Below, in pieces: positions 18,808 to 63,245 of a stretch of DNA of 64,000 nt. Source of the DNA: an uncultured Thermoprotei archaeon (lineage in GTDB: Archaea; Thermoproteota; Thermoprotei; Thermofilales; B15-G2); NCBI GenBank assembly GCA_965367815.1, contig CBDUKN010000004.1, forward strand, positions 99,952 to 163,951, written 5' to 3'. The translations under genes and the position numbers were made by a program. Within the stretch, counting starts at the first letter, position 1, and the number at the start of each line of letters is the position of its first letter. A model generated the notes under the pieces. The model was not told the DNA's origin and ran no database searches. It saw only the letters and a program-made list of their open reading frames with translations.

Positions 18808-18817
18808 GCTTCAAAAG

Positions 18818-18906
18818 CGGGCCCGCCGGGATTTGAACCCGGGACCTACGGCTGCCTCCCCTTAAGTTAGGAGGCCGCCGCTCTATCCTGGCTGAGCTAC
18901 GGGCCC
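18818..18906 (-). tRNA. tRNA-Arg(CCT) with 14-nt intron at 37/38
   Basis: GGGCCCG acceptor stem, GCGGC-CT-CCT-A[ACTTAAGGGGAGGC]A-GCCGT, GGTTCAAATCC. Confidence 0.93.
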
Positions 18907-25190: not shown

Positions 25191-25263
25191 GGGCCCGTAG
25201 TCTAGGGGTTAGGATGCCGCCCTTACGAGGCGGTGGTCCCGGGTTCGAATCCCGGCGGGCCCA
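25191..25263 (+). tRNA. tRNA-Val(TAC)
   Basis: GGGCCCG stem, CCGCC-CT-TAC-GA-GGCGG, GGTTCGAATCC. Confidence 0.95.
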
Positions 25264-25301
25264 TTTTTCCCGAAAAGAGAATTCTTCTAATGATGTTTTC
25301 T

Positions 25302-25346
25302 GAGTGTTGCCAAAATGAAGAGTACTCTGGCAACTACTCTTATATA
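25302..25346 (+). promoter_or_regulatory. inverted repeat plus TATA box upstream of integrase
   Basis: GAGT-GTTGCCA-N15-TGGCAAC-T-ACTC abutting TTATATA, ~25 nt before ATG 25369. Confidence 0.55.
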
Positions 25347-25368
25347 CAGGAGAGAAGCTACTATAGTA

Positions 25369-26652
25369 ATGGTAGGAAAAGCTTCTTCCTGGAGAGACCG
25401 TGTTGCCTACTCTGGCATCACTGAAGAAGACAGGAGGAGGATACTGAACTATGTTCTTGAAGTCAAAAAAGTCAAGTACAAGGACCTAGGCTTTGACAGA
25501 ACCTTTGTTTATAGGCTCAGGAAAGGAGAGAGGAGGATAACTGATAGAGTTTTGAGGAGGCTCTTAGACTTTTTGACAAAGGAAGAGCTCACCAGGCTGC
25601 TTGGAGTAGAGAAGAAGCTTGAAGCCTTAGGCATTATGAGGAACGGAGTACTAGACTACGGCCTAGTAATAGATATTCTAGAAGCTGCTAAAAGAGACAA
25701 TTATTTGAAGAATCTTATTGCGAAATGGTTTTACGAGAACCTAGCACATGAAATACCTCATGTAGTTAAAGTCACAGAGGAGCACGTAAAGAAATTTGAG
25801 AAAAGGCTCTCCGCAAAATCGAAGAAAACCAGAGAAGATAGACTCAGATATCTGCTTAAAGCACTAGAGGACCTTGAGTGGGAGCTAGCACCAGATAAAC
25901 TTGAAGAATACATATACGAGCTCCAGGCAGAGTCACCGCACAAAGCAGCACACATAGCCAAAGCCCTAAAACTCTTCATTAAGACAGTTCTAAAAGACAA
26001 AGCTCTCTACTACAGCTTCAAAGTACCCAGGCCTGGAGAAAAACTCGTAGCAGAGCCACTCACACTAGAAGAAGTAGTAAAAGTAGCCAAGAAAATAAAG
26101 CACCCTGGAGCACAAGCCTACTTCATTCTACTAGCCGAGACAGGTCTACGGCCTGGAGAAGTCCTCTCACTAACCCTCTCCTCACTAGACCTAAATAATA
26201 GAAAAATAAGGATAGGAAAAATATCTGAGACAAAAAGAAGCTACATCACCTTCTTGCACAAAAACACTGCTAACTATCTTAAAGAACGATATCTGCCTTT
26301 CAGAGAAGAATTTGTAGAAAAATACAGACCTATCCTAGCTAGACTAAACATAGATATTAAAGCCTGGGAAGCCAAGCTATTTCCCTTCAAAGACTACGAG
26401 CTAAGAAAAGAAATCTACACAGCTATGAAGAAAGCACTAAACCGGCAATTCAGACTATATGATTTGAGAGCATTTTTCGCAGCCTACATGTCTACCAGAG
26501 GAGTCTCCCCGCTAATCATAAACATACTACAAGGAAGACTGCCTCCCCGTGAATTCAAAATACTCCAATTCCACTACCTTCCTTTTACAGAAAAAGACCT
26601 GAGAAAAATCTATGAGAAAAACGCACCATGCATAACAAAACAGATACTTTAG
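25369..26652 (+). mobile_element. tyrosine recombinase/integrase (pNOB8-type signature) with N-terminal HTH; remnant element at tRNA-Val
   Basis: GLRPGE, ETK, YDLR, LQGR, HY = R..K..YxxR..R..Y; adjacent to tRNA 3' end; atypical codon usage. Confidence 0.88.
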
Positions 26653-32522: not shown

Positions 32523-33047
32523 CTACTGTTTTTGAATTTCAAAAATTTTTCTAAGTCTTTTCTCGCCTCCTATTTCTTTAATAATATTTTTTACAGGATC
32601 TGGAACAAGGCTTTCCCATAAAGGATTGCCTTCAGCTAATAATCTTCTTATGAATGTTCCTTGAAGCTTTTCTCTATTGAAAAAGGGAATGCTGTATACA
32701 GGTATACCTTCTTCTTCAAAAAGTAGTCTAGTTAGAGGATCATTTGAGTATACTCGAGAAAAAGGAGGAGCGCAGTACTGAACTACTTTAACCCAAAATG
32801 CATGCTTTGAGTCTGTATCAGGTATGGGTACAAGAATGCACCTATCGCAGAGATTTTCTGATTTTAGTGTTAACCATATCATGAGCATTCGTTCACCTAA
32901 AGTGAAAGGATTTTTTATACTATGGGAGTACTGACAACTACCTATGCCTATTACTAGTTCTTTCTCTTTTTCTAGTATCCATTTAATTGCCATTAAGTGA
33001 CCCTTATGAAACGGCTGAAATCTGCCTATATAAAGTGCTCGAGACAC
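32523..33047 (-). CDS. nadM: nicotinamide-nucleotide adenylyltransferase
   Basis: GRFQPFHKGH, NPFTLGER, GTFIR. Confidence 0.93.
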   Translation of the reverse strand: MSRALYIGRFQPFHKGHLMAIKWILEKEKELVIGIGSCQYSHSIKNPFTLGERMLMIWLTLKSENLCDRCILVPIPDTDSKHAFWVKVVQYCAPPFSRVYSNDPLTRLLFEEEGIPVYSIPFFNREKLQGTFIRRLLAEGNPLWESLVPDPVKNIIKEIGGEKRLRKIFEIQKQ

Positions 33048-33106
33048 ATTTTTGAATACATGTTAAGCCTAAATAAATTGTCTGCGAAATACTTTGAGTC
33101 CTTGTG

Positions 33107-33892
33107 TTATATTAACATAATTTTGAAGCAGTTAAATACCATATATAATATTTTCAAGAAAAGAAAATATAATGTAACAAATAATACTGAACATAAAAGA
33201 GCAGCTTTTTCATCGATCTTACTTAAAAATAAATATAAAATGAAAGGATATATTGAAAATAAAAATGAATTTTCTGAAATAACATATTTTGAATGAAAAA
33301 GAACATAGGGAAATATTGTAATCATAGAGCTAGTAAGTGAAAGTAAAATTGAAAGTATTCTAGATCTATAAAAGAATACATGAGTTTTTATGCTGAGGAA
33401 ACTGACATTTTCTCTTAATTGTGTAGCAATATCTATTAGTTCATTTACAAATAATAAACACGATTTAAAACTCTTTTTATAAATTTTTATTAGTATTCTT
33501 AGTGAAATATCCACTAATTTTGACAGTGAAAAAATGTATTTATAATGTGAATTTGAAGTATGCAAACACATACTTTTTATTAATTTAATTATTATAGTGT
33601 ATATTTCTTGTTCAGATTTTTTAGCTGAAATAAAAGAGAACATTGCTCTTTCTAAATTTATTTTTGATTCCATCTTACTTTTTACATAATACAATAGTGT
33701 TATGAAGGTTTCTAACTCATTTAACTCTAAATCTATTAAATATTTTAGCGACAAAGTTTTTTTAATGATATAGAATAGCACTATGAAGTCAACAATTAAA
33801 CAATACTCAATATTATATACAATAAATAGTAATAAATTAATATACAGTAGGAGGTAAGTTAATATAATACAGATAATATTATTATTTTTCAT
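33107..33892 (-). CDS. very AT-rich membrane protein, putative TadC/T2SS-F-like
   Basis: TM-soluble-TM layout; position downstream of the secretion ATPase; sequence identity not recognisable. Confidence 0.45.
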   Translation of the reverse strand: MKNNNIICIILTYLLLYINLLLFIVYNIEYCLIVDFIVLFYIIKKTLSLKYLIDLELNELETFITLLYYVKSKMESKINLERAMFSFISAKKSEQEIYTIIIKLIKSMCLHTSNSHYKYIFSLSKLVDISLRILIKIYKKSFKSCLLFVNELIDIATQLRENVSFLSIKTHVFFYRSRILSILLSLTSSMITIFPYVLFHSKYVISENSFLFSIYPFILYLFLSKIDEKAALLCSVLFVTLYFLFLKILYMVFNCFKIMLI

Positions 33893-34380
33893 AGTATTAT
33901 CTTGCTTAATACTACTATTATAAGCATTATTGTTAATCCTATAAATGTTAAATAAATAATTTTAGTGAAAAATGGTATGTTAAATATAATCGCTGGTAGT
34001 ATCAAGGGAATGTAAAATAGAAACGATACTGCTAAAAGCATTGTTAGAGTATCTTCATATTTTTCGAGAAGTGTTTTGAGTACTCTGTTTACAAATAGAA
34101 GAAGTGTATCTTCATCAGCATTTTCTGCAAAGTACTTGTTAAAGGTTTTTCTCAGTATATTATTGTACTTACGTACCCTAATAAAAGAATTAAGTATTTT
34201 TAACAACGAGACATTATTTACATCTTTTATACTAATATTTACATTATAGTATTCACTTAATAAATGTATAAAGAATATTAATGATACTTTTTTATCTCGA
34301 TAAATATTTCTAATGACATTGTATATAAGTAATAAAATATTTATTTCGAGAAAATCATAAATTAAAGGCATACTTCTCAC
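33889..34380 (-). CDS. very AT-rich membrane protein, putative TadB-like
   Basis: C-terminal TM hairpin; overlaps both neighbouring genes. Confidence 0.4.
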   Translation of the reverse strand: MRSMPLIYDFLEINILLLIYNVIRNIYRDKKVSLIFFIHLLSEYYNVNISIKDVNNVSLLKILNSFIRVRKYNNILRKTFNKYFAENADEDTLLLFVNRVLKTLLEKYEDTLTMLLAVSFLFYIPLILPAIIFNIPFFTKIIYLTFIGLTIMLIIVVLSKIIL

Positions 34381-36088
34381 TTTTAGCTTTCCTTATAAAG
34401 GGTGTTGGATAAATAAGTAGGTTATTAGAAAGATTTCTATCATATATCTTTATAAAGCGAAAGGAATTATTCGTGTCTAATGGTTCGTAAACTTTATCAA
34501 CATATCTTATTACTTTGTTTTTATAATATGATTTTTTAGTAAAAATTATAATATCTATTAAGAATAACATATTATGACTTATATTGTAGTTATTTACAAT
34601 TCTATTTAAAAGTTTCTTAAGTGAATCTGAATGGCATGTAAATGCACATTTGAGGCCTGCTGAAAGAGCCAAAAATAGTGCTTTAAACTGGTCTTTGGAT
34701 TGAATTTCTCCTAAAATTATGTAATCGGGATTTCTGTGAAGAAGTTTAGTTACCTCTATCTCTTTGCCTTTGTACTTTGGGCTATCTATAGGGTATACTT
34801 TATATCGTGCTTGATGAGCTTTGCCAGTGATATCTCTTATACTTTCGACTACATCTTCAATGTATAGTTTACGATAAAACGAGGGAATTTCTCTATCTAG
34901 TGCATTTAAAAGCGTAGTTTTCCCTGTGCCAGGTTCTCCTACAATCATCAGGTTAGGGCGATATTTCATGCAAAGTCTAAGATAATTTACAAGAGTATGT
35001 GGTAGCATATTTATTTGTGCAAGTTTTTCTAATGAACATAAATAGATATTATGTTTTCTTATATTCAATATTATATCGTCAACTGCTAGAGGACTTATAT
35101 CTACACTAACTCTTACAGCGAAAAATTTTGTTATGAGTTCTGTTTTTAGTGAGGGATTTGTTTCATCTATGATATCTCCAGTTTCTATTTTAAGTCTAGT
35201 GATTATATTATCTATATCATCTTTGTTCAATTTAATATTTGTTAGGCACCTGCCATATTTTATATGGTCTAGGTAGATGTGAGAATTCACTCCGTCGAGA
35301 TATATCTCCTGTATGTTTCTATCTAATAGAAATGCCATGAGTTTATGTAAGCCCAATATTTTATGACATAAGTATTTGCTTGTGTTTGTAATAAAATTCT
35401 TATAATTAATATTAAAGTCTATAAAATCTAGTAAGAGCTTGTCTACGCAAATTTTACTTAGACATAAAATTAATTTATTTAGATTGTATGATAAAATATT
35501 CGCAGATATTATTTCGCTAAATTTTGCATATAAATAATTTAGAAGAAGGATGCTGATATTGTTAACTATAATACTAGGTTTAACAATATAGTAACTTTCT
35601 TTTTCTCCTAAAATAATGTTAATTGTGTACGGTGGGATATCATAAACAGTTACTTCCTTATGCCTAAGTGCTATATCTCTGTTTGGTGGTGAAAAGTACT
35701 CTGTTAAAGATAGAGGTTGAGTTTTTATACTTTTATATGTCTTTAATATTCTATAAATTTTTGTCAATATTTTGTAGACTTCTTTACTTGATTTTTTAAG
35801 CTGCTTTTTATATGAATCTATAATATTAAGTGATGTTTCTAAATCATTTCTTGCCAAAAATCCGGGAAATGGAAAGACTGAAAAAACTTCTGATAAGTCT
35901 TGTAGTACATCGTAGTCAATGTTTGAGTGTAGTTTTTCACTGTTTGAAATAATACTGTTTCTTAGCTTTCTTATTAAATTTGATAGTAGTATTATGTTTT
36001 GATCCGTCACTTCGTTCGATAGGCTTTCAGATAGTGATAGTATGTATGCACTTATGTATATATTATTTGGCATCGGCATTCTTTGCAA
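34355..36088 (-). CDS. type II/IV secretion (pilus assembly) ATPase, VirB11/TadA family
   Basis: LLDRNIQEIYLDG, GEPGTGKTT, YIEDVVE, LLHRNPDYIILGEI, FTCHS. Confidence 0.85.
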   Translation of the reverse strand: MQRMPMPNNIYISAYILSLSESLSNEVTDQNIILLSNLIRKLRNSIISNSEKLHSNIDYDVLQDLSEVFSVFPFPGFLARNDLETSLNIIDSYKKQLKKSSKEVYKILTKIYRILKTYKSIKTQPLSLTEYFSPPNRDIALRHKEVTVYDIPPYTINIILGEKESYYIVKPSIIVNNISILLLNYLYAKFSEIISANILSYNLNKLILCLSKICVDKLLLDFIDFNINYKNFITNTSKYLCHKILGLHKLMAFLLDRNIQEIYLDGVNSHIYLDHIKYGRCLTNIKLNKDDIDNIITRLKIETGDIIDETNPSLKTELITKFFAVRVSVDISPLAVDDIILNIRKHNIYLCSLEKLAQINMLPHTLVNYLRLCMKYRPNLMIVGEPGTGKTTLLNALDREIPSFYRKLYIEDVVESIRDITGKAHQARYKVYPIDSPKYKGKEIEVTKLLHRNPDYIILGEIQSKDQFKALFLALSAGLKCAFTCHSDSLKKLLNRIVNNYNISHNMLFLIDIIIFTKKSYYKNKVIRYVDKVYEPLDTNNSFRFIKIYDRNLSNNLLIYPTPFIRKAKSEKYAFNL

Positions 36089-36965
36089 TGCTTATAATTG
36101 TTGGTAAACGTTTTCTTATACTACTTTCATTTACATCTAAAATATCTGCTATAGCTTTAATGCTAACCTTTTCTCCTCTATTGATTACCTTTGAGACAGA
36201 ATAGTAGACTATTGTGGCAGCTAATACCCGTGGACTTTTTCCTTGTATTATGCGTGAGTCAAGATGCTTGAGTATTAAATTACATTCTCTTAGACATAGT
36301 CTTCTTTCCTTTACTGAAAGATTTAGAGTATTCATTACCTTATTCAGAAAACGCATAGTGTATTCCTTTACTCCGGGTCTACTGTAAACGATTCCCTTTT
36401 TGGAAAGCATTTGCATGATTTCCCATATGTTGCTTAGCGATGTTCTATGGCCTCTTTCAGCGTATGCTTTTACTATTTTATTTATATTGTACCCATATTT
36501 CTTAGCGGCATATATCAGGCAGGCAGCTGCTATTCGATGATAGAAAGGTCTTCTTCTGTTTAATGTTGGCACTATGTGCTGACATGCAAATATGTAGAGT
36601 TTTTTAGCTTCATTTACAACATAGTTTGGTAAACCTAATTTAAATGCAATAAAGTTAAGTTCTTTAAATACTCTTAAATGCGTGGATCTATTGCCATATT
36701 TAATGTGAATATGGTACTCTCTAAGTTTTCTATAGAAGATATTCGCCGGTCTTTTAAGAAAATCTCTCATAGGACGTGGAATGAAAGACCCATCTTCAGC
36801 ATCAGTTGTTAACACTTTTTTTGAAATAGTGTCGTCGGCTACAGTTAATGGAGTGTCCCAGTATCTATATCCGTGTACTGTTCCACACTGACTGCACACT
36901 ATTTCTCCTTCGGGAGTCTCCACTAATGGTCCTTGACATTTAGTGCACCTATTATACATCAACAC
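36063..36965 (-). CDS. divergent TFB (TFIIB) paralog
   Basis: Zn ribbon CTKC..GEIVCSQCG, cyclin repeats (AAACLIYA; GKSPRVLAATIVY), C-terminal HTH. Confidence 0.82.
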   Translation of the reverse strand: MLMYNRCTKCQGPLVETPEGEIVCSQCGTVHGYRYWDTPLTVADDTISKKVLTTDAEDGSFIPRPMRDFLKRPANIFYRKLREYHIHIKYGNRSTHLRVFKELNFIAFKLGLPNYVVNEAKKLYIFACQHIVPTLNRRRPFYHRIAAACLIYAAKKYGYNINKIVKAYAERGHRTSLSNIWEIMQMLSKKGIVYSRPGVKEYTMRFLNKVMNTLNLSVKERRLCLRECNLILKHLDSRIIQGKSPRVLAATIVYYSVSKVINRGEKVSIKAIADILDVNESSIRKRLPTIISIAKNADAK

Positions 36966-37083
36966 TAATAGCAGTTTTTCCCTTTATATTCATTGTAGGA
37001 AAATTTTTACCATAAGAAAGCAGAAAAAAGTTTCAGTCTACTCTCAAGTAAATTTTATTGAAGTGATAAAGGAATATGTGCTT

Positions 37084-37374
37084 ATGGAATGCCGTAGAAT
37101 AGAGAATATTATTTTTTCTAAAATTGCTATGAAAATACTTATAGCATTATATCTTTCTAAAAAGCCTATGACGAAGTATCAGTTAATGAAAAAAGTTAAT
37201 GTTAATTACAAGATATTAGTTGACAGACTTAATAAGCTGATAGAAATAGGTCTTATCGAAGTACATTATTATAAACCGCTACGCTATAGTTTATCTAAAA
37301 GGATTTTCATCAATAAGGAGTATGAGCCTATATTGAAATATATTGAGGCTATGTCTAATATCATAAGGCTTTAA
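37084..37374 (+). CDS. winged-helix transcriptional regulator
   Basis: MKILIAL...TKYQLMKKVNVNYKILVDRLNKLIEIGLI; start 37084 preferred to 36943. Confidence 0.7.
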   Translation: MECRRIENIIFSKIAMKILIALYLSKKPMTKYQLMKKVNVNYKILVDRLNKLIEIGLIEVHYYKPLRYSLSKRIFINKEYEPILKYIEAMSNIIRL

Positions 37375-37888
37375 TAGCTTCGTAATATGAGATATTCCCA
37401 TCCTTATCTACTATTGCTAATATTGGTATTCGCTTATTTTTTAAAGCTTTTTCGATGATATCTACTAGTTCCGTTATAGATATTGGCTTACCTTCAGATA
37501 AAATAAAAACAGAATACTTTATTTCACCTTCTTTTCCTCTTGAGAACAGGATAGTAGGTGGTGTAGCTTCATGGACTATTCGAGGGATGTATCCTCTTTT
37601 TCTAAGATCTCTATAGACTATGTATAAATCCCATATTTCTGGATTGCTACTCCAGCAGAAAATAAAGACATCTTCTTTATTGAGTATTTTGTCCTTAATT
37701 TTAACAATATACTTACCGCTCTCTAGCAGGTAGAGTATCTCGGCTAAATGAAGTAAGTATTCATCGCCATAACTTATTCCGATTCCGCGGTCTTTTAAAA
37801 CAGAAATTTTTTCTCTATTGACCAGTGCAAAGTAATCTTCCTTAGGCTCTACTATAAGTTCGATAATCGACTGTTTTTCTTGCTTCAT
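37361..37888 (-). CDS. tRNA splicing endonuclease, structural (beta) subunit
   Basis: LAEILYL, YIVYRDLRKRGY, LAIVDKDGNISYY; lacks the Tyr/His/Lys triad. Confidence 0.85.
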   Translation of the reverse strand: MKQEKQSIIELIVEPKEDYFALVNREKISVLKDRGIGISYGDEYLLHLAEILYLLESGKYIVKIKDKILNKEDVFIFCWSSNPEIWDLYIVYRDLRKRGYIPRIVHEATPPTILFSRGKEGEIKYSVFILSEGKPISITELVDIIEKALKNKRIPILAIVDKDGNISYYEAIKAL

Positions 37889-38570: not shown

Positions 38571-39533
38571 ATGTATACTGTAGTCGATCTCTTTTGTGGA
38601 GCAGGAGGATTTTCTAGGGGCTTTCACCTTGAAGGGTTTGAAGTAGTGTTGGGTATAGACAACTCTCCTCAAGCCTCTAAAACTTTTTCAAAAAATTTCA
38701 AGAAAGCTATAGTTATTTGCTCTGATATAAAAGAAGTGTCAGGGCTAGATATTTTAAGGGAACTTGGATATAGGCCCGATGTAGTTATTGGAGGACCACC
38801 TTGTGAAGCATTTACTCGGACAAATCCTCTTAGAATGCCTAATCCTATTGACCGGCTATACTTAGACTCAGTAGGACAGTTAACCCTGCATTTCATAAGA
38901 ATAGTGGGAGAACTAAAACCTAAGGTATTCGTTATGGAAAATGTTCCGAGTATTATTGAAGGAGAATTAAAACAAGCTTTACGTGAAGAGTTCGCGAAAG
39001 CAGGGTATAAGAAAATATACTTTAACATACTCAGAGCAGAAGACTACGGAAATCCTTCAATCAGGAGAAGAATATTTATATCGAATATCAAGCTGTCTCC
39101 TCCTAAATTAAGGAAGAAAACTACGGTGGCTGAAGCTATAGGAGACTTACCTGAACCCGGAGTATCGTCGGATATACCTAATCACGAGTATACTCCTTTT
39201 TCTCCGAGAAAATTAAGAAAAATATCTAGATTAAAGTGGGGTCAAGCACTTATAATCTACAAGGGTGCTGAAGGTCGATACTACAAAAACTATATAAGGT
39301 TACATCCAAATAAGCTTGCACCGACAGTAATGGGGTCTTCTCGCTTTGTTCACCCCTATAGCGATAGGCTACTTACTGTTCGCGAACAAGCCAGACTCAT
39401 GGGGTTCCCCGATTATCATGTCTTTTACGGTGGAAGAGATTCTCAGTACAATCAAGTAGGAGAAGCAGTTCCAGTACCGCTAGCTAAGGCTATAGCGAGA
39501 GAAGTATATAAGGTACTCGAAAACCTACTATAG
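38571..39533 (+). CDS. C5 cytosine methyltransferase (orphan)
   Basis: DLFCGAGG, GGPPC, MENV, RRRIF, LTVREQARLMGFP, GEAVP. Confidence 0.92.
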   Translation: MYTVVDLFCGAGGFSRGFHLEGFEVVLGIDNSPQASKTFSKNFKKAIVICSDIKEVSGLDILRELGYRPDVVIGGPPCEAFTRTNPLRMPNPIDRLYLDSVGQLTLHFIRIVGELKPKVFVMENVPSIIEGELKQALREEFAKAGYKKIYFNILRAEDYGNPSIRRRIFISNIKLSPPKLRKKTTVAEAIGDLPEPGVSSDIPNHEYTPFSPRKLRKISRLKWGQALIIYKGAEGRYYKNYIRLHPNKLAPTVMGSSRFVHPYSDRLLTVREQARLMGFPDYHVFYGGRDSQYNQVGEAVPVPLAKAIAREVYKVLENLL

Positions 39534-39540
39534 TGCAGTC

Positions 39541-40029
39541 ATGGTGAAAAATATGAGAATGCCTATTGTCGGAATACATGGAATATTTTCTGTTCAGAGA
39601 TTAGTAGACTTCGTGAAAACTGCTATAGCGCTGGGGTGCTCCACAATAGTGGTATCTAAAGCAGTGGGTGCAGCTGCACAAAACGGTGTTCCCGAAGCTC
39701 AGAAAGTAGTATTTAAGAGTGGAAGAAATATGCTTGTAGTCGCAGACTTAGTAGATATTAAAGAACTACTTGACCCTGATAAACTCATTTTAATAACAAC
39801 TGAAAAAAGAGAAGATATACCAGAAGTAGCTTTCGAAGAAATAGTCAACATACTAAGAGAAAATAAGAATATTATCTTGGTGTATCCAGGCTCAGATACA
39901 GGATTTACTAGAGGTGAATTAGAGCTAGGTGAAGCATACAGAATACCGCTGGTGGAGGGAGCACAATTAAGTCCAGTAGCGGCTCTTGCTATAAGTATTT
40001 TCGAGATAAAAAGATTACAACAATGTTAA
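39541..40029 (+). CDS. DUF2122-family (SPOUT-like) protein
   Basis: SVQRLVDF, KAVGAAAQNGVPEA, GSDTGFTRGEL. Confidence 0.75.
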   Translation: MVKNMRMPIVGIHGIFSVQRLVDFVKTAIALGCSTIVVSKAVGAAAQNGVPEAQKVVFKSGRNMLVVADLVDIKELLDPDKLILITTEKREDIPEVAFEEIVNILRENKNIILVYPGSDTGFTRGELELGEAYRIPLVEGAQLSPVAALAISIFEIKRLQQC

Positions 40030-41077: not shown

Positions 41078-41683
41078 TTGATGGTAAAAAATATACTTGT
41101 GATACTTAGTAAAAGTTGTATAGGTATGGAGCATAAAGCTTACTTAATTGGACGTAAAGTAGTAGTATTTGACTATGAGTTAGGAAGACAGCTTTACAAA
41201 GAAGGATTTTATGGAAAATTTACATATGTGCCAAAAGTCAAGGATTTAGCTCAGTGCGATGAAATCGAAAGTCCTCTTGAATTATCTTTAGTTGAAGCTC
41301 TCTACTTAATGAAAAGAGGTAGAATTAAGATAGTCACGAGAGAAGGCAAAGAAATAAGCATAAATGAGTTCATAGAGTTAGCACGCAAATATATTGACCT
41401 CTTCGACGAATTATATTCGGTGTACGAAGACCTTCGAAGTAGAGGATATATTGTAAAATCAGGCATGAAATTTGGAGCAACATACGCTGTGTACAAGTAT
41501 GGTCCCGGCATTGACCACGCTCCCTTTTTAGTACAGGTTTCAACAAAAAATACGAAAATGGATCCCATAGAGATTGTTCGAGCAGGAAGATTGTCGCACT
41601 CAGTAAGAAAGAAATTTGTAATTGCAGTAAGAGATGTTACGTCAGGTAAAATAAAATATTACGCTTTTAAGTGGTTCGGATGA
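41078..41683 (+). CDS. endA: tRNA splicing endonuclease, catalytic (alpha) subunit
   Basis: GFYGK loop, KFGATYAVY, GPGIDHAPF, GRLSHSVRK. Confidence 0.93.
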   Translation: MMVKNILVILSKSCIGMEHKAYLIGRKVVVFDYELGRQLYKEGFYGKFTYVPKVKDLAQCDEIESPLELSLVEALYLMKRGRIKIVTREGKEISINEFIELARKYIDLFDELYSVYEDLRSRGYIVKSGMKFGATYAVYKYGPGIDHAPFLVQVSTKNTKMDPIEIVRAGRLSHSVRKKFVIAVRDVTSGKIKYYAFKWFG

Positions 41684-43689
41684 CCAAGAAATTATTAATA
41701 ATAATCATTATTTTATCACTAACATTACCTATTCAAGTAAGTAAAGTTAAAGGAGAACAAAACACTTATACTCTTCAAGTAATAATAAACGACTATTTTA
41801 ACGAAAGCCTAGCAGGATATCCTCTTGATGTGGTTCTAAAAAGCAATATAACAGAAATAAAGTTGCAAAAGGTCACTACTGGGCAAGTAATATTTAATAA
41901 TTTATCTGAAGGAATCTATATACTTACAGTATATTCTAGAGCTCCTATAAGCAACAAGGTAGTATACAATGGTACGATAACAATTACTGGTAATTTAACA
42001 ACATACATTAAATGTAAAGTGATGAGAGTGAAGATAGTAGTAAAGACTATTGATAATGTAGTCTTATCGAGCTATGCATTAGAAATAAATAATCATATAT
42101 ATGGTAATGATAATATAATATTACCTATAAATGAAACATATAAAATAAAAGTTTATTATAATAATAAAGAAATACCACTACTAATGGACACAATAAAGGT
42201 TACACCTAACAATAAAATTTACTACTTAACATGTAATGCTAGACTAAAAACAGTATTCAAGTTTAATTACTACGATGGGTCTTCAATACCGGAATCTACT
42301 TTAGAAACTATTTCGGTAACTATTTTATATGATGGAGAAGAACTTCCTTTAATCTACAATAGTTCTAGCGGTAAATTCTACTTAAATAATTTAATTATTC
42401 TCGGTAAATATGACATTAAAATATTCTATAGGGGAGAGTATTTAGGTACTTTTAGTGTCGAGGTATCTTCCGCAGATTTAATTACTTTAAATATTCCTCT
42501 ATTAAAGGAAGTCGAAATAAAGATAAGTGATAGTCAGGGAAAAGGTATTCCTTATGCCCATATTAAAATAGAATGGGCGAATAAAGTAATATGGGAAGGA
42601 GTAACTGATTCTTTAGGAAAAATTACTTTCAATAACATACCTAAAGGCAAGGAGTTGAAAGTAACTATTAAGGTAGGCGACAGAGAATATATTTTCTGGA
42701 AATCATTCAATACTTTTCAAGAAAAGATTTTTATAAATCTATTTTCGCTTAAGCTGACTTTCACAACACCTGAAAAAACAAAAATACCTCCCGGCTCAAA
42801 AGTCGTAATAAAATACAATGGAAAAACACTCTTCTGCTACGAATATACCTCAGGTTACTTAGTTCTAGATTATTTACCTCCTGGAGTATATGAAGTAGCA
42901 GTCTACTGGAGAAATACTCTAGTTGCATACGATAAAATAACCTTAAATACTAATATAGAGAAAAATATAGTATGTAAAATATATAATTTAACAATTATTG
43001 TAAAAAACATCCCAGATAAATATCTTAATAGAATAAAAATAAAAATAAGTGAAGATAATGATGTATATCAAGAAATAGTGCCTTCACAGAGAGTAGTGTT
43101 CTTGCCTTGGCTTCCTTATGGAAAGTATAATATCAGTATAGTTTACTTAGGAAACTTTTCTAAGGTTCCTCTTATAAATGAAAGTATTTTACTCCAGTCT
43201 ACTCAAGTAGTTTCCTTTATCTTACCAGTTTCATCTTTAGCTATAAGTGCGGTCAACTATTGGGGAGAAAAATTAAGTAAAGTAAATGTAGTTGTTTTAG
43301 TTACCTACAATGGATCACTAGTAGATAAGTACAATTTAACATCAGTTTTTCTTCCAATCTACTTAGATATTGTGCCGAGAGTAAAAGGTGTTGCATTAAA
43401 CATTACAGTAATGTATAAGAGATTCAAAAAGAGTACATTGGTTGATACAGTAAGCATTAAATCTGATGAAATAACTATGAGAATGAATGAAGTGTTTGTA
43501 GAAATCCTGGGATATCCTTTGACTTTAATTGAAACCGTTTTCTTAATAATTGGTGTGTTAGTCCTCATTGCTGGAATATGCTGGTTTATTTATAACTACT
43601 ACTATTTGGGCGAATATGAAGAAGTAGAACTGATTGAAGAAGAGGAGGAATCTTACGAGGAGGAAGAGGAAAGTGAGTATGAATATTAA
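41671..43689 (+). CDS. secreted, membrane-anchored Ig-like repeat protein with acidic cytoplasmic tail
   Basis: Signal peptide, repeated G-x-Y-x-I-x-V-Y strands, N-x-S/T sequons, TM, poly-Glu tail. Confidence 0.75.
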   Translation: MVRMTKKLLIIIIILSLTLPIQVSKVKGEQNTYTLQVIINDYFNESLAGYPLDVVLKSNITEIKLQKVTTGQVIFNNLSEGIYILTVYSRAPISNKVVYNGTITITGNLTTYIKCKVMRVKIVVKTIDNVVLSSYALEINNHIYGNDNIILPINETYKIKVYYNNKEIPLLMDTIKVTPNNKIYYLTCNARLKTVFKFNYYDGSSIPESTLETISVTILYDGEELPLIYNSSSGKFYLNNLIILGKYDIKIFYRGEYLGTFSVEVSSADLITLNIPLLKEVEIKISDSQGKGIPYAHIKIEWANKVIWEGVTDSLGKITFNNIPKGKELKVTIKVGDREYIFWKSFNTFQEKIFINLFSLKLTFTTPEKTKIPPGSKVVIKYNGKTLFCYEYTSGYLVLDYLPPGVYEVAVYWRNTLVAYDKITLNTNIEKNIVCKIYNLTIIVKNIPDKYLNRIKIKISEDNDVYQEIVPSQRVVFLPWLPYGKYNISIVYLGNFSKVPLINESILLQSTQVVSFILPVSSLAISAVNYWGEKLSKVNVVVLVTYNGSLVDKYNLTSVFLPIYLDIVPRVKGVALNITVMYKRFKKSTLVDTVSIKSDEITMRMNEVFVEILGYPLTLIETVFLIIGVLVLIAGICWFIYNYYYLGEYEEVELIEEEEESYEEEEESEYEY

Positions 43690-44482: not shown

Positions 44483-45478
44483 GTGACTAAAATGACGATA
44501 GAAGCTATTGCTCCGGGTAAAGTTATAATAGCTGGTGAACATTTTGTAGTAGAAAATGAGCCTGGAATAGCTGCAGCCATTTCTCTCTATGCTAAAGTAA
44601 AGTTAGAGCCGAGGTCTGAAAAAGAGGTTATTGAATTGTATTCAGTGAATTATAATGTTTTAAATAAAATAAAAATAAGTGAAATAAATAAGGAGCGTAT
44701 CGAATGCGATGCAATTTTTTATCCCTTCATTCGAGTAATGCAAATAGTACTCGAGGAGTACGGTAAGTTGCCTTCATGTAAAATCGAAATATCTTCTCAG
44801 ATACCTCCTAAAGCAGGATTAGGTTCCTCAGCTGCGACAGCGGTAGCTTTTTCCGCCGCGCTACTTAAAGCGATAGGAGCTGAAGTAGACTTAGATGAAG
44901 TATCTGAACTGGCCTATGAAGCAGAGAAAATTTCTCATGGCAAGCCAAGTGGAATAGACAATACTGTTTCTACGTACGGGGGAGTAATAGTATTTAAAAA
45001 AAGTGAAGGTTTTGTGAAATTGGATGAAGTGAAATACGATGAATTTAAACTAGTTTTAGCAGATACGGGCAGCCGTGAATCTACAAAAAAACTTGTAGAA
45101 AAAGTAAGGAGGCTGAAAAATGAATACGACGAAGTCTTTATGCCCTTTTATCATGCAGCAGGGCACCTCACAATAGAGCTCGCTAAAAAGCTGTCAGAAG
45201 GCGACTTAGTCGCTGTTGGAGAACTGATGAATGTTGCTCACGGTATGTTGTACTCGCTTGGATTATCGACGGAAACTGTAGAAAAACTAGTTTTTACTGC
45301 AAGAAAAGCAGGGGCTCTAGGAGCTAAAATTACTGGTGCAGGTGGAGGAGGCATGATAATTGCGCTTACTACTCCTGAATTGGCTGAAAAGGTAAGCAGT
45401 AAGTTACTTAATGCTGGCGCGGCTTGGGTAAAAATAGTTAATGTCATAGAAGAGGGTGTTGCCGTAGATGAAATTTAG
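44483..45478 (+). CDS. mvk: mevalonate kinase
   Basis: APGKVIIAGEH, GLGSSAA, HGKPSGID, KITGAGGGG. Confidence 0.93.
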   Translation: MTKMTIEAIAPGKVIIAGEHFVVENEPGIAAAISLYAKVKLEPRSEKEVIELYSVNYNVLNKIKISEINKERIECDAIFYPFIRVMQIVLEEYGKLPSCKIEISSQIPPKAGLGSSAATAVAFSAALLKAIGAEVDLDEVSELAYEAEKISHGKPSGIDNTVSTYGGVIVFKKSEGFVKLDEVKYDEFKLVLADTGSRESTKKLVEKVRRLKNEYDEVFMPFYHAAGHLTIELAKKLSEGDLVAVGELMNVAHGMLYSLGLSTETVEKLVFTARKAGALGAKITGAGGGGMIIALTTPELAEKVSSKLLNAGAAWVKIVNVIEEGVAVDEI

Positions 45479-46838
45479 AAAGTTTCCCCTACTAATGCTG
45501 TTAACAATAGTGTTATCTAGCTTATTAATTATCGTAAACTCCGTTAGTTTACCCGAGAACAATAACGAGATTTTAAAAGCAAAACTAGTACTGTGTAGCA
45601 GATATACCATGAGTAGAGGCGAGGTAGTACCTCTAGATACACGCGAAGACTTTATAATTTCTGAAAGAGATTTCATAGCGATAATAGTATTTTATAATAT
45701 TTCTGAGAAAATAGCAATAAATGTAAAATGTTTTGCTCCGACTAATAAAAAAATCTTTGAAATATCTTTCACAGTAAATCCTTTAGTAAACTTCTCTGTA
45801 AATAGAGTACCTAAATTCTATATAGTTATGACTGTTCCTTTGAGCGAAGGAGAATACATAGATGTTTTTTGTAAAGCGTTTGCTTTCATGCCAATAATTA
45901 AAAGTCAGCCATTTCGCTTAGATACAATCTATAAAATAGGACTGTGGCGAATCGATATTAGTGCTAATGGTAAGCTACTTATATCAAGAAATTTCACTGT
46001 AAGAAAGCCTCTAGTTAAGATAATTACAACTGATATAAACAATAATATATTAAATAATACACTAATAACAATATTGGGATTATCGAGTGGTTTTCAGAAA
46101 ACGTTTAAAGGTCCAATAGCTACACTAGAAGTTATGCCTGCAAGCTATATAGCAATAGTTAAGTATATGGGCATAATTGTTGCTAATAAAACAATAGATG
46201 TTACAACCGATACAATAATAAGAATACCATGTCAAGTATTTGATGTAAAAATAAAGGTTTTAGATGATGAAGGGGGATGTCCTGTATCTAATGCTGTGGT
46301 CTCGATAACTATTTTAAATAGAGTGATATCTAATACTACATCTTCAAATGGCATTACAGTGTTAAGTAAAATACCATTGGGAAAACATATAATAAAAATA
46401 TACTTAAATAAAAGTGTTATATATAGCGATATTATCGAAGTTAGCAAATGGTCTTATGAGTTTAAGCTGTTAACAAAGACTGCTGTTGTTCAGCTGTCAA
46501 TTAAGGGGACTAGTGGGCAACCTTTAAGAGGAGCTAAAATATACTGTTTGAATTTATCTAAAGTATTTTTATCTGACGAAAATGGAACTGTTGTATTTGG
46601 TCCAGTTCCTTACGGCAGATATATCTTTAAAATAGTTTACAAGGATATAAAGAGGCTAATAGCGATTAATGTTCCACCGAAATATCATAAAATAGTACTT
46701 GATGTGTTTGTTGAAGTTAACGGAATAACATTCTCTAAAGAAATGTTTTATGCGCTTCTTCTAGGATCTCTAAGCGTAATTGCAATGGTTATTTCAGTAG
46801 TTTTTGTTAAAAGAACATTTTTTAAGCAACAGAAGTAG
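45468..46838 (+). CDS. secreted, membrane-anchored protein with carboxypeptidase-regulatory-like repeats
   Basis: Signal peptide, PVSNAVV/PLRGAKI...SDENG repeats, C-terminal TM. Confidence 0.72.
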   Translation: MKFRKFPLLMLLTIVLSSLLIIVNSVSLPENNNEILKAKLVLCSRYTMSRGEVVPLDTREDFIISERDFIAIIVFYNISEKIAINVKCFAPTNKKIFEISFTVNPLVNFSVNRVPKFYIVMTVPLSEGEYIDVFCKAFAFMPIIKSQPFRLDTIYKIGLWRIDISANGKLLISRNFTVRKPLVKIITTDINNNILNNTLITILGLSSGFQKTFKGPIATLEVMPASYIAIVKYMGIIVANKTIDVTTDTIIRIPCQVFDVKIKVLDDEGGCPVSNAVVSITILNRVISNTTSSNGITVLSKIPLGKHIIKIYLNKSVIYSDIIEVSKWSYEFKLLTKTAVVQLSIKGTSGQPLRGAKIYCLNLSKVFLSDENGTVVFGPVPYGRYIFKIVYKDIKRLIAINVPPKYHKIVLDVFVEVNGITFSKEMFYALLLGSLSVIAMVISVVFVKRTFFKQQK

Positions 46839-61820: not shown

Positions 61821-62321
61821 ATGAAAAACCTATGGGCTCCCTGGAGAGTAAAGTATGTGAGATATAAGGCCATAGAAAAACAAAAAGGATGTTTTCTATG
61901 TGAAATACCTAAAGAGAATAAAGACAAAGAAAACTTTATTGTTTATAGAAGTAAACACGTCTATATTGTATTGAATATTTTTCCTTATAACAATGGCCAT
62001 GTATTAGTTGCACCATATAGGCACGTAAAGTACTTAAATGAACTTAATCAAGAGGAGATGCTTGATTTAATGCAGACAGTCAACTTAGTAACTGATGCTT
62101 TACTTAGAGCATATAGACCAGACGGCTTTAATATAGGAATAAATATTGGCAGAGCTGCCGGAGCAGGAGAAGAACACTTACATGTTCACGTGGTTCCTCG
62201 ATGGAATGGAGATACGAACTTTATGGCAGTACTAGCAGAAACTAAAGTTATACCAGAGGGGCTTTATGAGACTTACAAGAATTTGAAGAAGGCTATAGAA
62301 GAGATTTTATCTCATCGGTAA
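61821..62321 (+). CDS. HIT-family hydrolase (Ap4A phosphorylase-like)
   Basis: [26 protein letters not shown]. Confidence 0.92.
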
Positions 62322-63245
62322 CTTGATGTTGAGTTTCTTTGCTAGTTCTTTGTATCTATTTCTTACAGTTACTTCTGTCACTTGGGCTGCTTGAGCGACT
62401 TCTTTCTGTGTTCTAACTTCTCCTGAAAGAAGTGACGCTACATATATTGCGGCGGCTGCTAGACCAGCAGGATCCTTTCCTGCTGTAATACCGAGTTTCT
62501 TGGCTTCTTTGAGTATTTCTATTGCTTTTCTAATAGTAGTTGCGCTAAGCTTTAATGTTTCACCTATTTTTGGAGCAAAGTCGACTGGGTCAGGTAAAGG
62601 AACTCTAATTGTGGCTTCGCGAAGTAGTAGTCTATAGCATCTAGCGACATCTTTTCGTCCAGCTCTAGTATATTTCGCTATCTCATCCAGTGTTCTGGGC
62701 ATTTTGAGTTGTCGACAAGCAGCGTAAATAGATGCGGCCATTACAGACTCTATTGATCGGCCTCTAACGAGACCTGACTCAAGTGCTCGACGATATATTT
62801 CAAGTGCCTGTTCCTTTATTGTCTTAGGTAGCCCTAGCTGAGCCGCTAGCCTCTCTAGTTCCTGAGCTGCTTGCTGAAGATTCCTCTCTATTGAGGACTG
62901 ACTTCTTGCTCTAATTTGCCATTTTCTAAGGCGTAGTATCTCTATTTTGCGCTTGAGGTTTAGTTCTCTACCCGATGCATCTCGTGCTCTCCAGTCGATG
63001 ACGGTTACTAAGCTGTCTGGAGTTACTCTTGACATCGGAGCACCAACTCTGCTTCTTCTTTCTCTCTCTTCTGGAGTAAATGCTCTCCATTCAGGTCCTC
63101 TGTCAATAGACCTGTCTGTAATTACGAGTCCACAGACTGCGCAGATTAGCTCGCCTCGTGTGTAGTCCAATATTAGCTTGTCGCTACCGCACGCTGGGCA
63201 CTTCTTTACATATTCCCCCGTTTCAATAACTTCCTCCCTACTCAT
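62307..63245 (-). CDS. tfb: transcription initiation factor IIB (canonical)
   Basis: CPACG Zn ribbon, [41 protein letters not shown]. Confidence 0.96.

Follow-up and report, generated by a model that had tools for sequence, protein, structure and literature searches.

The pairing of a TFIIB homolog with a type IV pilus (T4P) locus is already in print (PMC4858521, PMC13705601). In the passages that deal with it, Makarova, Koonin and Albers (2016, PMC4858521) assign to subclade 4D, found in Pyrobaculum and Thermoproteus, an ATPase, a protein with 4-5 transmembrane (TM) segments and a single-cyclin TFIIB homolog, with Rpo8 nearby and no pilin, and suggest a transcription-related function for it; the same passages state that a TFIIB homolog that has a Zn finger as well as two cyclin domains, arCOG01981, 'is found in many T4P loci'. 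In the corresponding passages of Sivabalasarma et al. (2026, PMC13705601), subsystem 4D figures as a probable non-functional, repurposed remnant, with components scattered over 17 Asgard genomes and unlikely to act together. Our search of the literature on paralogs of archaeal transcription factor B (TFB) with type IV pili or in Asgard archaea found no paper on the function of such a paralog. We analyzed a module at positions 33107-37374 of a 64-kb stretch of DNA (hereafter the window) from an uncultured Thermoprotei archaeon, whose genome, G000, spans 2.45 Mb in 37 contigs (99.4% complete, GC content 0.386). Four overlapping minus-strand genes encode a TFB paralog, a secretion ATPase and two small membrane proteins, TM1 and TM2, and a small divergent plus-strand gene encodes a winged helix-turn-helix (wHTH) protein. 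Since the pairing is known, the window adds a member to a known kind. We put the probability at roughly 55% that it holds a working chromosomal Tad/Epd-like mini-pilus core, vertically inherited and led by a gene-specific TFB paralog.

Like subclade 4D, the module places a secretion ATPase and small membrane protein(s) in one predicted operon with a TFIIB homolog, and has no pilin in the locus. Family f10 probably represents, by its matching layout, Pyrobaculum and Thermoproteus. Six of its seven loci have an Rpo8-like gene next to a short paralog of 155-175 aa, an ATPase of 342 aa that carries a Cys cluster at its N terminus and a membrane protein of 180 aa with four helices. The window's ATPase falls on the same side of a 99% branch as these short, 4D-like ATPases, and the C-terminal 54-79 residues of its paralog are 35-44% identical to the short paralogs. 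It differs from 4D in that its 300-aa TFB homolog has two cyclin folds where the 155-175-aa form has one, its 577-aa ATPase lacks the N-terminal Cys cluster of the form of about 342 aa, its membrane part is divided between two genes, its Rpo8-like gene is unlinked (contig C34) and a cognate pilin exists in the genome. With its Zn finger, two cyclin domains and place in a T4P locus, the paralog resembles the arCOG01981 homologs by description.

We compared the paralog with canonical TFBs using family models, homolog profiles and structure prediction. It matches the TFIIB family (PF00382, E 3.5e-10, 40.2 bits, cut-off 23.6), falls below the cut-off of the Zn-ribbon family (PF08271, E 1.7e-4, 21.5 bits, cut-off 29) and does not reach that of the NCBIfam model for canonical TFB (NF001658, 36 bits, cut-off 384). 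A profile of 23 paralog homologs aligned with human TFIIB over nearly its full length (E 1.3e-22) and with both cyclin repeats of the Pyrococcus woesei TFB core (1AIS/1D3U, E 5e-16), and across these homologs the four Zn-ribbon cysteines (C7, C10, C24, C27) and an arginine of the last helix (R284) are invariant. The AlphaFold2 model (mean predicted local distance difference test score, pLDDT, 74.7) is confident in the ribbon and at 85-92 in the core, with the linker at residues 34-74 below 50, and the 40 best listed Protein Data Bank (PDB) rows of a Foldseek search with it are all TFIIB, TFB or Brf chains (1D3U, E 5.9e-6). The B-reader motif GPEWR, present in most canonical TFBs, was found in 0 of the 24 paralog-type proteins scored; the linker is unconserved across homologs, and the last, recognition helix differs from that of canonical TFB in the alignment. 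The preliminary description, made from the letters of the window, had credited the paralog with a Zn ribbon and both cyclin repeats and had noted a missing B-reader and an altered recognition helix, and each of these features stood up in the homolog comparison. Besides the paralog, the genome encodes two canonical TFBs, at 62307-63245 of the window and on contig C26. At E <= 0.01, a model of the window's canonical TFB gave no reported match to the paralog, and the paralog as query against its own genome found itself only; on the paralog hidden Markov model (HMM) it scores 324.9 bits. That the ribbon, the two cyclin folds and the invariant last-helix arginine have been kept argues that the paralog still does TFB-like work on DNA.

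The ATPase matches T2SSE (PF00437, E 1.6e-14, 53.8 bits, cut-off 24.9) and belongs to the TadA/FlaI/archaeal-GspE class. Its profile found the Archaeoglobus GspE-type ATPase 2OAP (E 1.6e-46), FlaI (2e-37), CpaF (2.5e-31) and VirB11 (6e-11) in the PDB, and the best NCBIfam matches were FlaI at 86.2 bits (cut-off 550), TadA at 71.2 (373) and VirB11 at 65.5 (250), none an equivalog. The Walker A (G384..T392), Asp box (E411, D412, E415), Walker B (D455..E461) and His box (H486) residues, reported as intact when the window was first described, are invariant in 20 aligned homologs; the N-terminal portion of about 235 aa belongs to no known family and has no Cys cluster.

We then assessed how far the TFB-ATPase pair is conserved across 61 related genomes. 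Among the 20 best paralog matches, 13 have the ATPase as a same-strand neighbour. Of the remaining seven, one sits on a contig that stops just beyond the paralog, four are paralogs with no adjoining ATPase, one (L042) scored as a canonical-type TFB and one (L044) scored equally low on both models (88 vs 87 bits) and groups with canonical TFBs in a quick tree. Profile searches gave bimodal scores, and with thresholds placed at the gaps after inspection (472 bits or more for the ATPase, with the next match at 199; 167 bits or more for the paralog, with the next at 129) the ATPase clade was found in 23 of the 61 genomes and the paralog in 24, with both in 21 of the 23 ATPase genomes. A single contig carries both, no more than 5 kb apart, in 19 of these 23. 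G013, a twentieth genome, has a partial paralog alongside the ATPase, in G006 and G050 the two are on separate short contigs, and no paralog was found in G053 (69% complete). In family f5, three genomes (G029, G033, G039) encode the paralog but no ATPase of this clade, which fits a factor able to act alone. In G001, of the same genus and 85% complete, both locus edges are contig ends, so the apparent lack of paralog and ATPase there is uninformative. Broken copies also occur, namely an ATPase with 4 stops in G056 (G056:C1:1971807-1972748), a paralog with one TAG in G033 (G033:C129) and a further ATPase considered below (G011), which together indicate that the module has been lost in some lineages. 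In four loci of families f11-f13 (L036, L038, L040, L043) a small coiled-coil protein of 122-156 aa with a conserved N-terminal helix lies between paralog and ATPase; we found no counterpart of it in the window or in G000.

The pair also recurs in Asgard archaea. At least seven loci found with the ATPase profile lie in Borr-, Sif-, Hermod- and Thorarchaeota and in one further archaeon, and in at least five of them the paralog adjoins the ATPase or lies within 3.3 kb of it. These paralogs score 165-192 bits on a paralog HMM built without them and 0-47 against canonical TFB. In quick trees with SH-aLRT (approximate likelihood ratio) support, which have long branches and few outgroups, canonical TFBs split from the paralogs at 97%, the paralog group itself reaching only 81% with the window protein on a long branch, and all TFB-linked ATPases, short forms included, stand apart from six other T4P/Tad ATPases (99%). 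Collectively, these comparisons support the view that the paralog belongs to a distinct, conserved lineage tied to the ATPase clade, and the linkage on which the preliminary description had staked its proposal is conserved, in metagenome-assembled Asgard genomes as well as in the related ones.

The module is also maintained. Metagenome contigs L133 and L134 carry the same genes in the same order with the same neighbours (ATPase identity 97% and 73%), and all open reading frames (ORFs) are intact in the window and in both contigs. The paralog is the best-conserved protein of the module, with 85% identity to L134. Nei-Gojobori ratios of nonsynonymous to synonymous substitution (dN/dS) against L134 range from 0.045 to 0.194 across the module (Table 1), with 0.040 for the neighbouring endonuclease; these ratios are approximate, as dS is 1.1-2.2. 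Against L133, where dS is 0.02-0.07 and changes are few, they are 0.22, 0.22, 0.40, 0.44 and 0.48 for the paralog, ATPase, TM1, TM2 and wHTH gene, with flanking genes at 0 to 0.27. The module is therefore under purifying selection and is not decaying, the ratio near 1 that had been named in advance as a sign of decay not being found. That the paralog is under the strongest purifying selection in the module and persists without the ATPase in three genomes further argues for TFB-like work on DNA.

Neither TM1 nor TM2 matched a Pfam or NCBIfam family, and at E <= 0.1 Pfam gave nothing for TM2 and an irrelevant weak match for TM1. TM1 has three homologs (94, 59 and 58% identity), and TM2 has two relatives besides itself among 1.84 billion representatives; BLAST of both against the ORFs of 27 related loci found no match. 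In relatives, a single membrane protein of 363-417 aa follows the ATPase, in what we call the platform position; Pfam found no T2SSF domain (PF00482) in 13 such proteins. By hhalign, TM1 (E 1.7e-4, probability 50%, residues 103-149 vs 100-145) matched the relatives' platform-position protein in the N-terminal half and TM2 (E 6.2e-5, probability 65%) in the C-terminal half. Split membrane pairs of similar size follow the ATPase in four related loci; when TM1 and TM2 were aligned by hhalign with split platform pairs from relatives and Asgard loci, the scores were weak (E 0.004-0.13). Foldseek with a weak TM2 model (pLDDT 55) placed cytoplasmic domains of EpsF, OutF, PilC and TcpE at ranks 1-9 and 13 (E 0.1-1.3; 0.1-0.64 for the nine best PDB matches). 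The nearest ESM Atlas clusters to TM2 were T2SSF clusters at 0.91 and 0.89, which we take as leads only, and the Atlas held no match for TM1. Three weak lines thus agree that TM1 is probably the N-terminal half, and TM2 the C-terminal half, of a split platform of the TadB/TadC type (T2SSF/PilC/TadC-like).

No pilin or prepilin peptidase is encoded within the window, as was remarked when it was first described, and both are encoded elsewhere in the genome. Six related loci and at least three Asgard loci contain a pilin family inside the locus, often accompanied by other proteins with an N-terminal hydrophobic helix. The start of these pilins consists of a basic leader, Gly/Ala and then Ser/Ala-x-hydrophobic-hydrophobic-Glu-Glu-Gly-Leu-Leu-Leu opening a hydrophobic helix, and by this pattern the small in-locus gene is a Flp-sized pilin with a predicted class III signal peptide. 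The genome of the window encodes a stand-alone Flp-like mini-pilin of 84 aa with a class III signal peptide (G000:C13:218-472; hmmsearch E 1.8e-17, next match 0.019). It lies at the very start of its contig, where the upstream context is lost (locus L135), and next comes a 531-aa protein that carries a signal peptide and is anchored at its C terminus. In G003 and G004, too, the pilin is unlinked; G002 and G009 have it in-locus. A prepilin peptidase (PF01478, 53.4 bits, cut-off 26.5) is encoded on contig C11. The pilin and the peptidase would together serve the module's ATPase.

These parts invite comparison with the bacterial Tad/Flp pilus (TadA/CpaF, TadB, TadC, Flp, TadV). Shared with it are a CpaF-related ATPase (E 2.5e-31), two single-domain, here putative, platform proteins, a separate prepilin peptidase and a very small pilin whose Gly/Ala cleavage site is followed by Glu residues. 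Unlike the bacterial system, the module sits in an archaeal host, in an operon led by a TFB paralog, has no secretin or other Tad accessory genes, and its platform proteins remain below Pfam T2SSF.

We also examined the wHTH gene and the promoter region that it shares with the paralog. The wHTH protein gave winged-helix matches below threshold only (TrmB, HTH_45, ArsR); the TrmB match is sub-threshold in all four homologs (4/4, best E 4.7e-5), and the protein matches MJ223 in the PDB (E 3.8e-4). The gene adjoins the paralog in L133, L134, G001 and one more distant genome (L032, 27% identity). The divergent region at 36960-37083 is identical to L134 at 105 of 124 positions, compared with 56-65% at third codon positions of the flanking genes, and is thus conserved well above the neutral level; a TATA-like sequence, AATATAAAG, lies about 30 nt upstream of ATG 36959. 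A scan for bacterial-type promoters and terminators, a signal type not relevant to archaea, saw 36 where 29.9 were expected.

Together, these findings outline how the module may work. The assembly ATPase and the platform, split into two half-size membrane proteins, would form the core of a minimal type IV filament machine, with the filament subunit (the Flp-like mini-pilin) and the prepilin peptidase supplied from elsewhere in the genome. The paralog would lead the operon and is probably translationally coupled to it. Its cyclin core would bind the complex of TATA-binding protein (TBP) and DNA, its Zn ribbon would bind RNA polymerase, and its changed last helix may read another promoter-proximal sequence. 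From these predicted contacts and the changed helix, we propose a gene-specific initiation factor or co-factor that would tie the scattered filament genes to the operon, with the small wHTH protein acting on the shared, conserved divergent promoter. The interpretation given in the preliminary description is supported in part, and its alternative-sigma-like switch stays a proposal. Transcription as an operon, the paralog's role at promoters and assembly of a filament are all inferred.

Several observations weigh against this picture. The B-reader of canonical TFB takes part in start-site selection and promoter opening. Its loss from the paralog, together with a linker that is unconserved and of low confidence in the model, suggests that the paralog may not be able to start transcription by itself and may need canonical TFB or transcription factor E (TFE), or that it may compete with other factors. 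Matching the conserved promoter block against the genome, with up to 3 mismatches allowed in 20-mers and up to 2 in 16-mers and without a chance control, gave only scattered AT-rich near-matches, none of them upstream of the pilin. The platform call for TM1 and TM2 is made on weak scores (hhalign 50-65%, Foldseek E >= 0.1, pLDDT 55, no Pfam family), and the link between the module and the distant pilin is one of family co-occurrence in other genomes only. In the Thor- and Hermodarchaeota loci the paralog, ATPase and pilin are present with no platform gene in the stretch read, and the ATPase of G011 (G011:C37:15636-17294) is broken by 7 stops.

The published reading of 4D (PMC4858521, PMC13705601), as worded in the passages cited above, would make the module a repurposed remnant, in which the ATPase and small membrane proteins build no filament and serve, with the TFIIB homolog, a transcription-related or other intracellular task. 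It gains from the absence of a pilin at the window locus, from the lack of any Pfam platform match for TM1 and TM2 and from the short-form f10 loci, which show the published 4D layout. We consider it unlikely here, as the pilin family with its class III signal peptide is conserved in six related and at least three Asgard loci and is present in this genome along with a prepilin peptidase, the ATPase motifs are invariant and all module genes are under purifying selection.

Less likely again is an assembly checkpoint, in which the paralog would be held at the membrane by the ATPase or platform and released as the machine's state dictates, transcription thereby following assembly. The tight and probably translationally coupled gene order (17-26 nt overlap), kept from the window's lineage to the Asgard loci, and the apparent co-travel of paralog and ATPase in both quick trees speak for such an arrangement. 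Against it, the paralog occurs in three genomes without the ATPase clade, and several loci have the two genes on opposite strands or separated by 1-3.3 kb. In a broader form, which we regard as quite improbable, paralog and ATPase would be one inherited unit in Thermoproteota-type and Asgard archaea, with the paralog, besides acting as a gene-specific TFIIB-like initiation factor, also held by the assembly machine and released by its state, telling RNA polymerase when to make pilin. If true, archaea would have in it their own equivalent of the flagellar FlgM/sigma-28 checkpoint, made from a eukaryote-type general factor.

The mini-pilus reading also has to be set against a DNA-transfer or DNA-uptake system switched on by the paralog, which would follow the example of TFB3, Ups and Ced in Sulfolobales. 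TFB3, like the window paralog in the reading proposed here, is a TFB paralog linked to how a surface filament system is expressed. It is a truncated TFB, whereas the window paralog keeps the whole cyclin core and heads the operon, and the analogy drawn in the preliminary description is not supported. TFB3 is reported to be induced by DNA damage (PMC6101594, PMC6101591) and is encoded outside the pilus operon. This analogy is what the DNA-transfer proposal draws on, and with no VirB4, HerA or Ced-like gene in the module or any related locus annotated, we think it very unlikely.

The preliminary description had also called the module markedly more AT-rich than its flanks, which holds for the ATPase and TM genes (GC 0.21-0.29) and fails for the paralog (0.355 vs 0.335-0.354 in the flanks). 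L134 shows the same GC gradient, which marks it as a stable property of the genes and not as a sign of recent import. That the module is cargo of a recently integrated mobile element is barely credible: set against the low GC of the ATPase and TM genes relative to the genome mean of 0.386 and a tRNA-Asn 0.8 kb away are the shared gradient, the same chromosomal context in L133, L134 and at both G001 edges, where protein identity is down to 52-59%, the lack of an integrase in the island and the lack of flanking direct repeats beyond short AT-rich matches. Elsewhere in the window, a tyrosine-recombinase gene of the phage integrase family (25191-26652, E 1.6e-8) starts 52 nt after a tRNA-Val and is followed by 2 kb of AT-rich sequence (GC 0.30-0.35), possibly an integrated element unrelated to the TFB-pilus module.

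The layout of the module is given in Table 1. The ORF coordinates bear out the four overlapping co-oriented genes and the divergent wHTH gene of the preliminary gene calls, in which the starts of the wHTH gene and the paralog needed correction; the likely starts, ATG 37084 and ATG 36959, both agree with those in L134. The overlaps measure 4 nt (TM2/TM1), 26 nt (TM1/ATPase) and 26 nt (ATPase/paralog), and the 3' end of the wHTH gene overlaps the tRNA-splicing endonuclease gene.

Table 1. Positions (in the window) of the module and its housekeeping flanks, with approximate dN/dS against L134 (dS 1.1-2.2).
Feature	Coordinates	Strand	Description	dN/dS vs L134
NMNAT (nicotinamide-nucleotide adenylyltransferase)	32523-33047		Housekeeping flank; NF002243, E 1.4e-60	
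TM2	33107-33892	minus	261 aa; membrane protein, putative cytoplasmic helical bundle	0.194 (107 codons)
TM1	33889-34380	minus	163 aa; small membrane protein, hydrophobic segments in C-terminal third	0.133
ATPase	34355-36088	minus	577 aa; TadA/FlaI/archaeal-GspE class; alternative start ATG 36079	0.105
TFB paralog (TFB-like)	36063-36965	minus	300 aa; probable true start ATG 36959	0.045
Divergent intergenic region, TFB paralog/wHTH	36960-37083	no strand	124 nt, conserved	
wHTH ORF	36943-37374	plus	Likeliest start ATG 37084, giving 37084-37374, 96 aa	0.065
tRNA-splicing endonuclease subunit	37361-37888		Housekeeping flank; then tRNA-Asn	

Further features of the window lie outside the module. A second tRNA-splicing endonuclease gene (41078-41683) is found 3 kb from the one at 37361-37888; one of the two encodes the catalytic C-terminal domain only and the other N- and C-terminal domains, as expected of a two-subunit enzyme. 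The tRNA-Arg at 18817-18906 is 90 nt long and may contain an intron. At 38571-40029, the genes for a C-5 cytosine DNA methyltransferase (E 3.2e-52) and, immediately after it, a DUF2122 RecB-family nuclease (E 4.5e-24) form a possible restriction-modification pair; both members show high conservation in L133 and G001. CarboxypepD_reg-like repeats mark two large proteins, encoded at 41671-43689 and 45468-46838; the first has N- and C-terminal hydrophobic segments and lies in an AT-rich stretch (GC 0.26-0.32), making it a candidate surface protein. Among public sequencing runs that hold at least half of the sampled words of 33000-37500, X1-X3 and X5 are labelled as hydrothermal-vent or sediment metagenomes, X4 is listed under a coded organism, and none is RNA.

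Gene-specific TFB/TFIIB paralogs offer archaea one of a handful of known routes by which their eukaryote-like basal transcription could be rewired, and in few instances is the target defined. The likely targets here are few and concrete, namely one operon, one pilin and one conserved promoter, and together with the recurrence in Asgard archaea this would let the module serve as a compact system for testing how a TFIIB-type factor that lacks a B-reader works. The module also bears on the published view of 4D-type systems as pilin-less remnants, in that this genome and its relatives encode a cognate mini-pilin and every part of the module is under purifying selection. The window thus adds some evidence that such systems are complete and maintained, and are not remnants.

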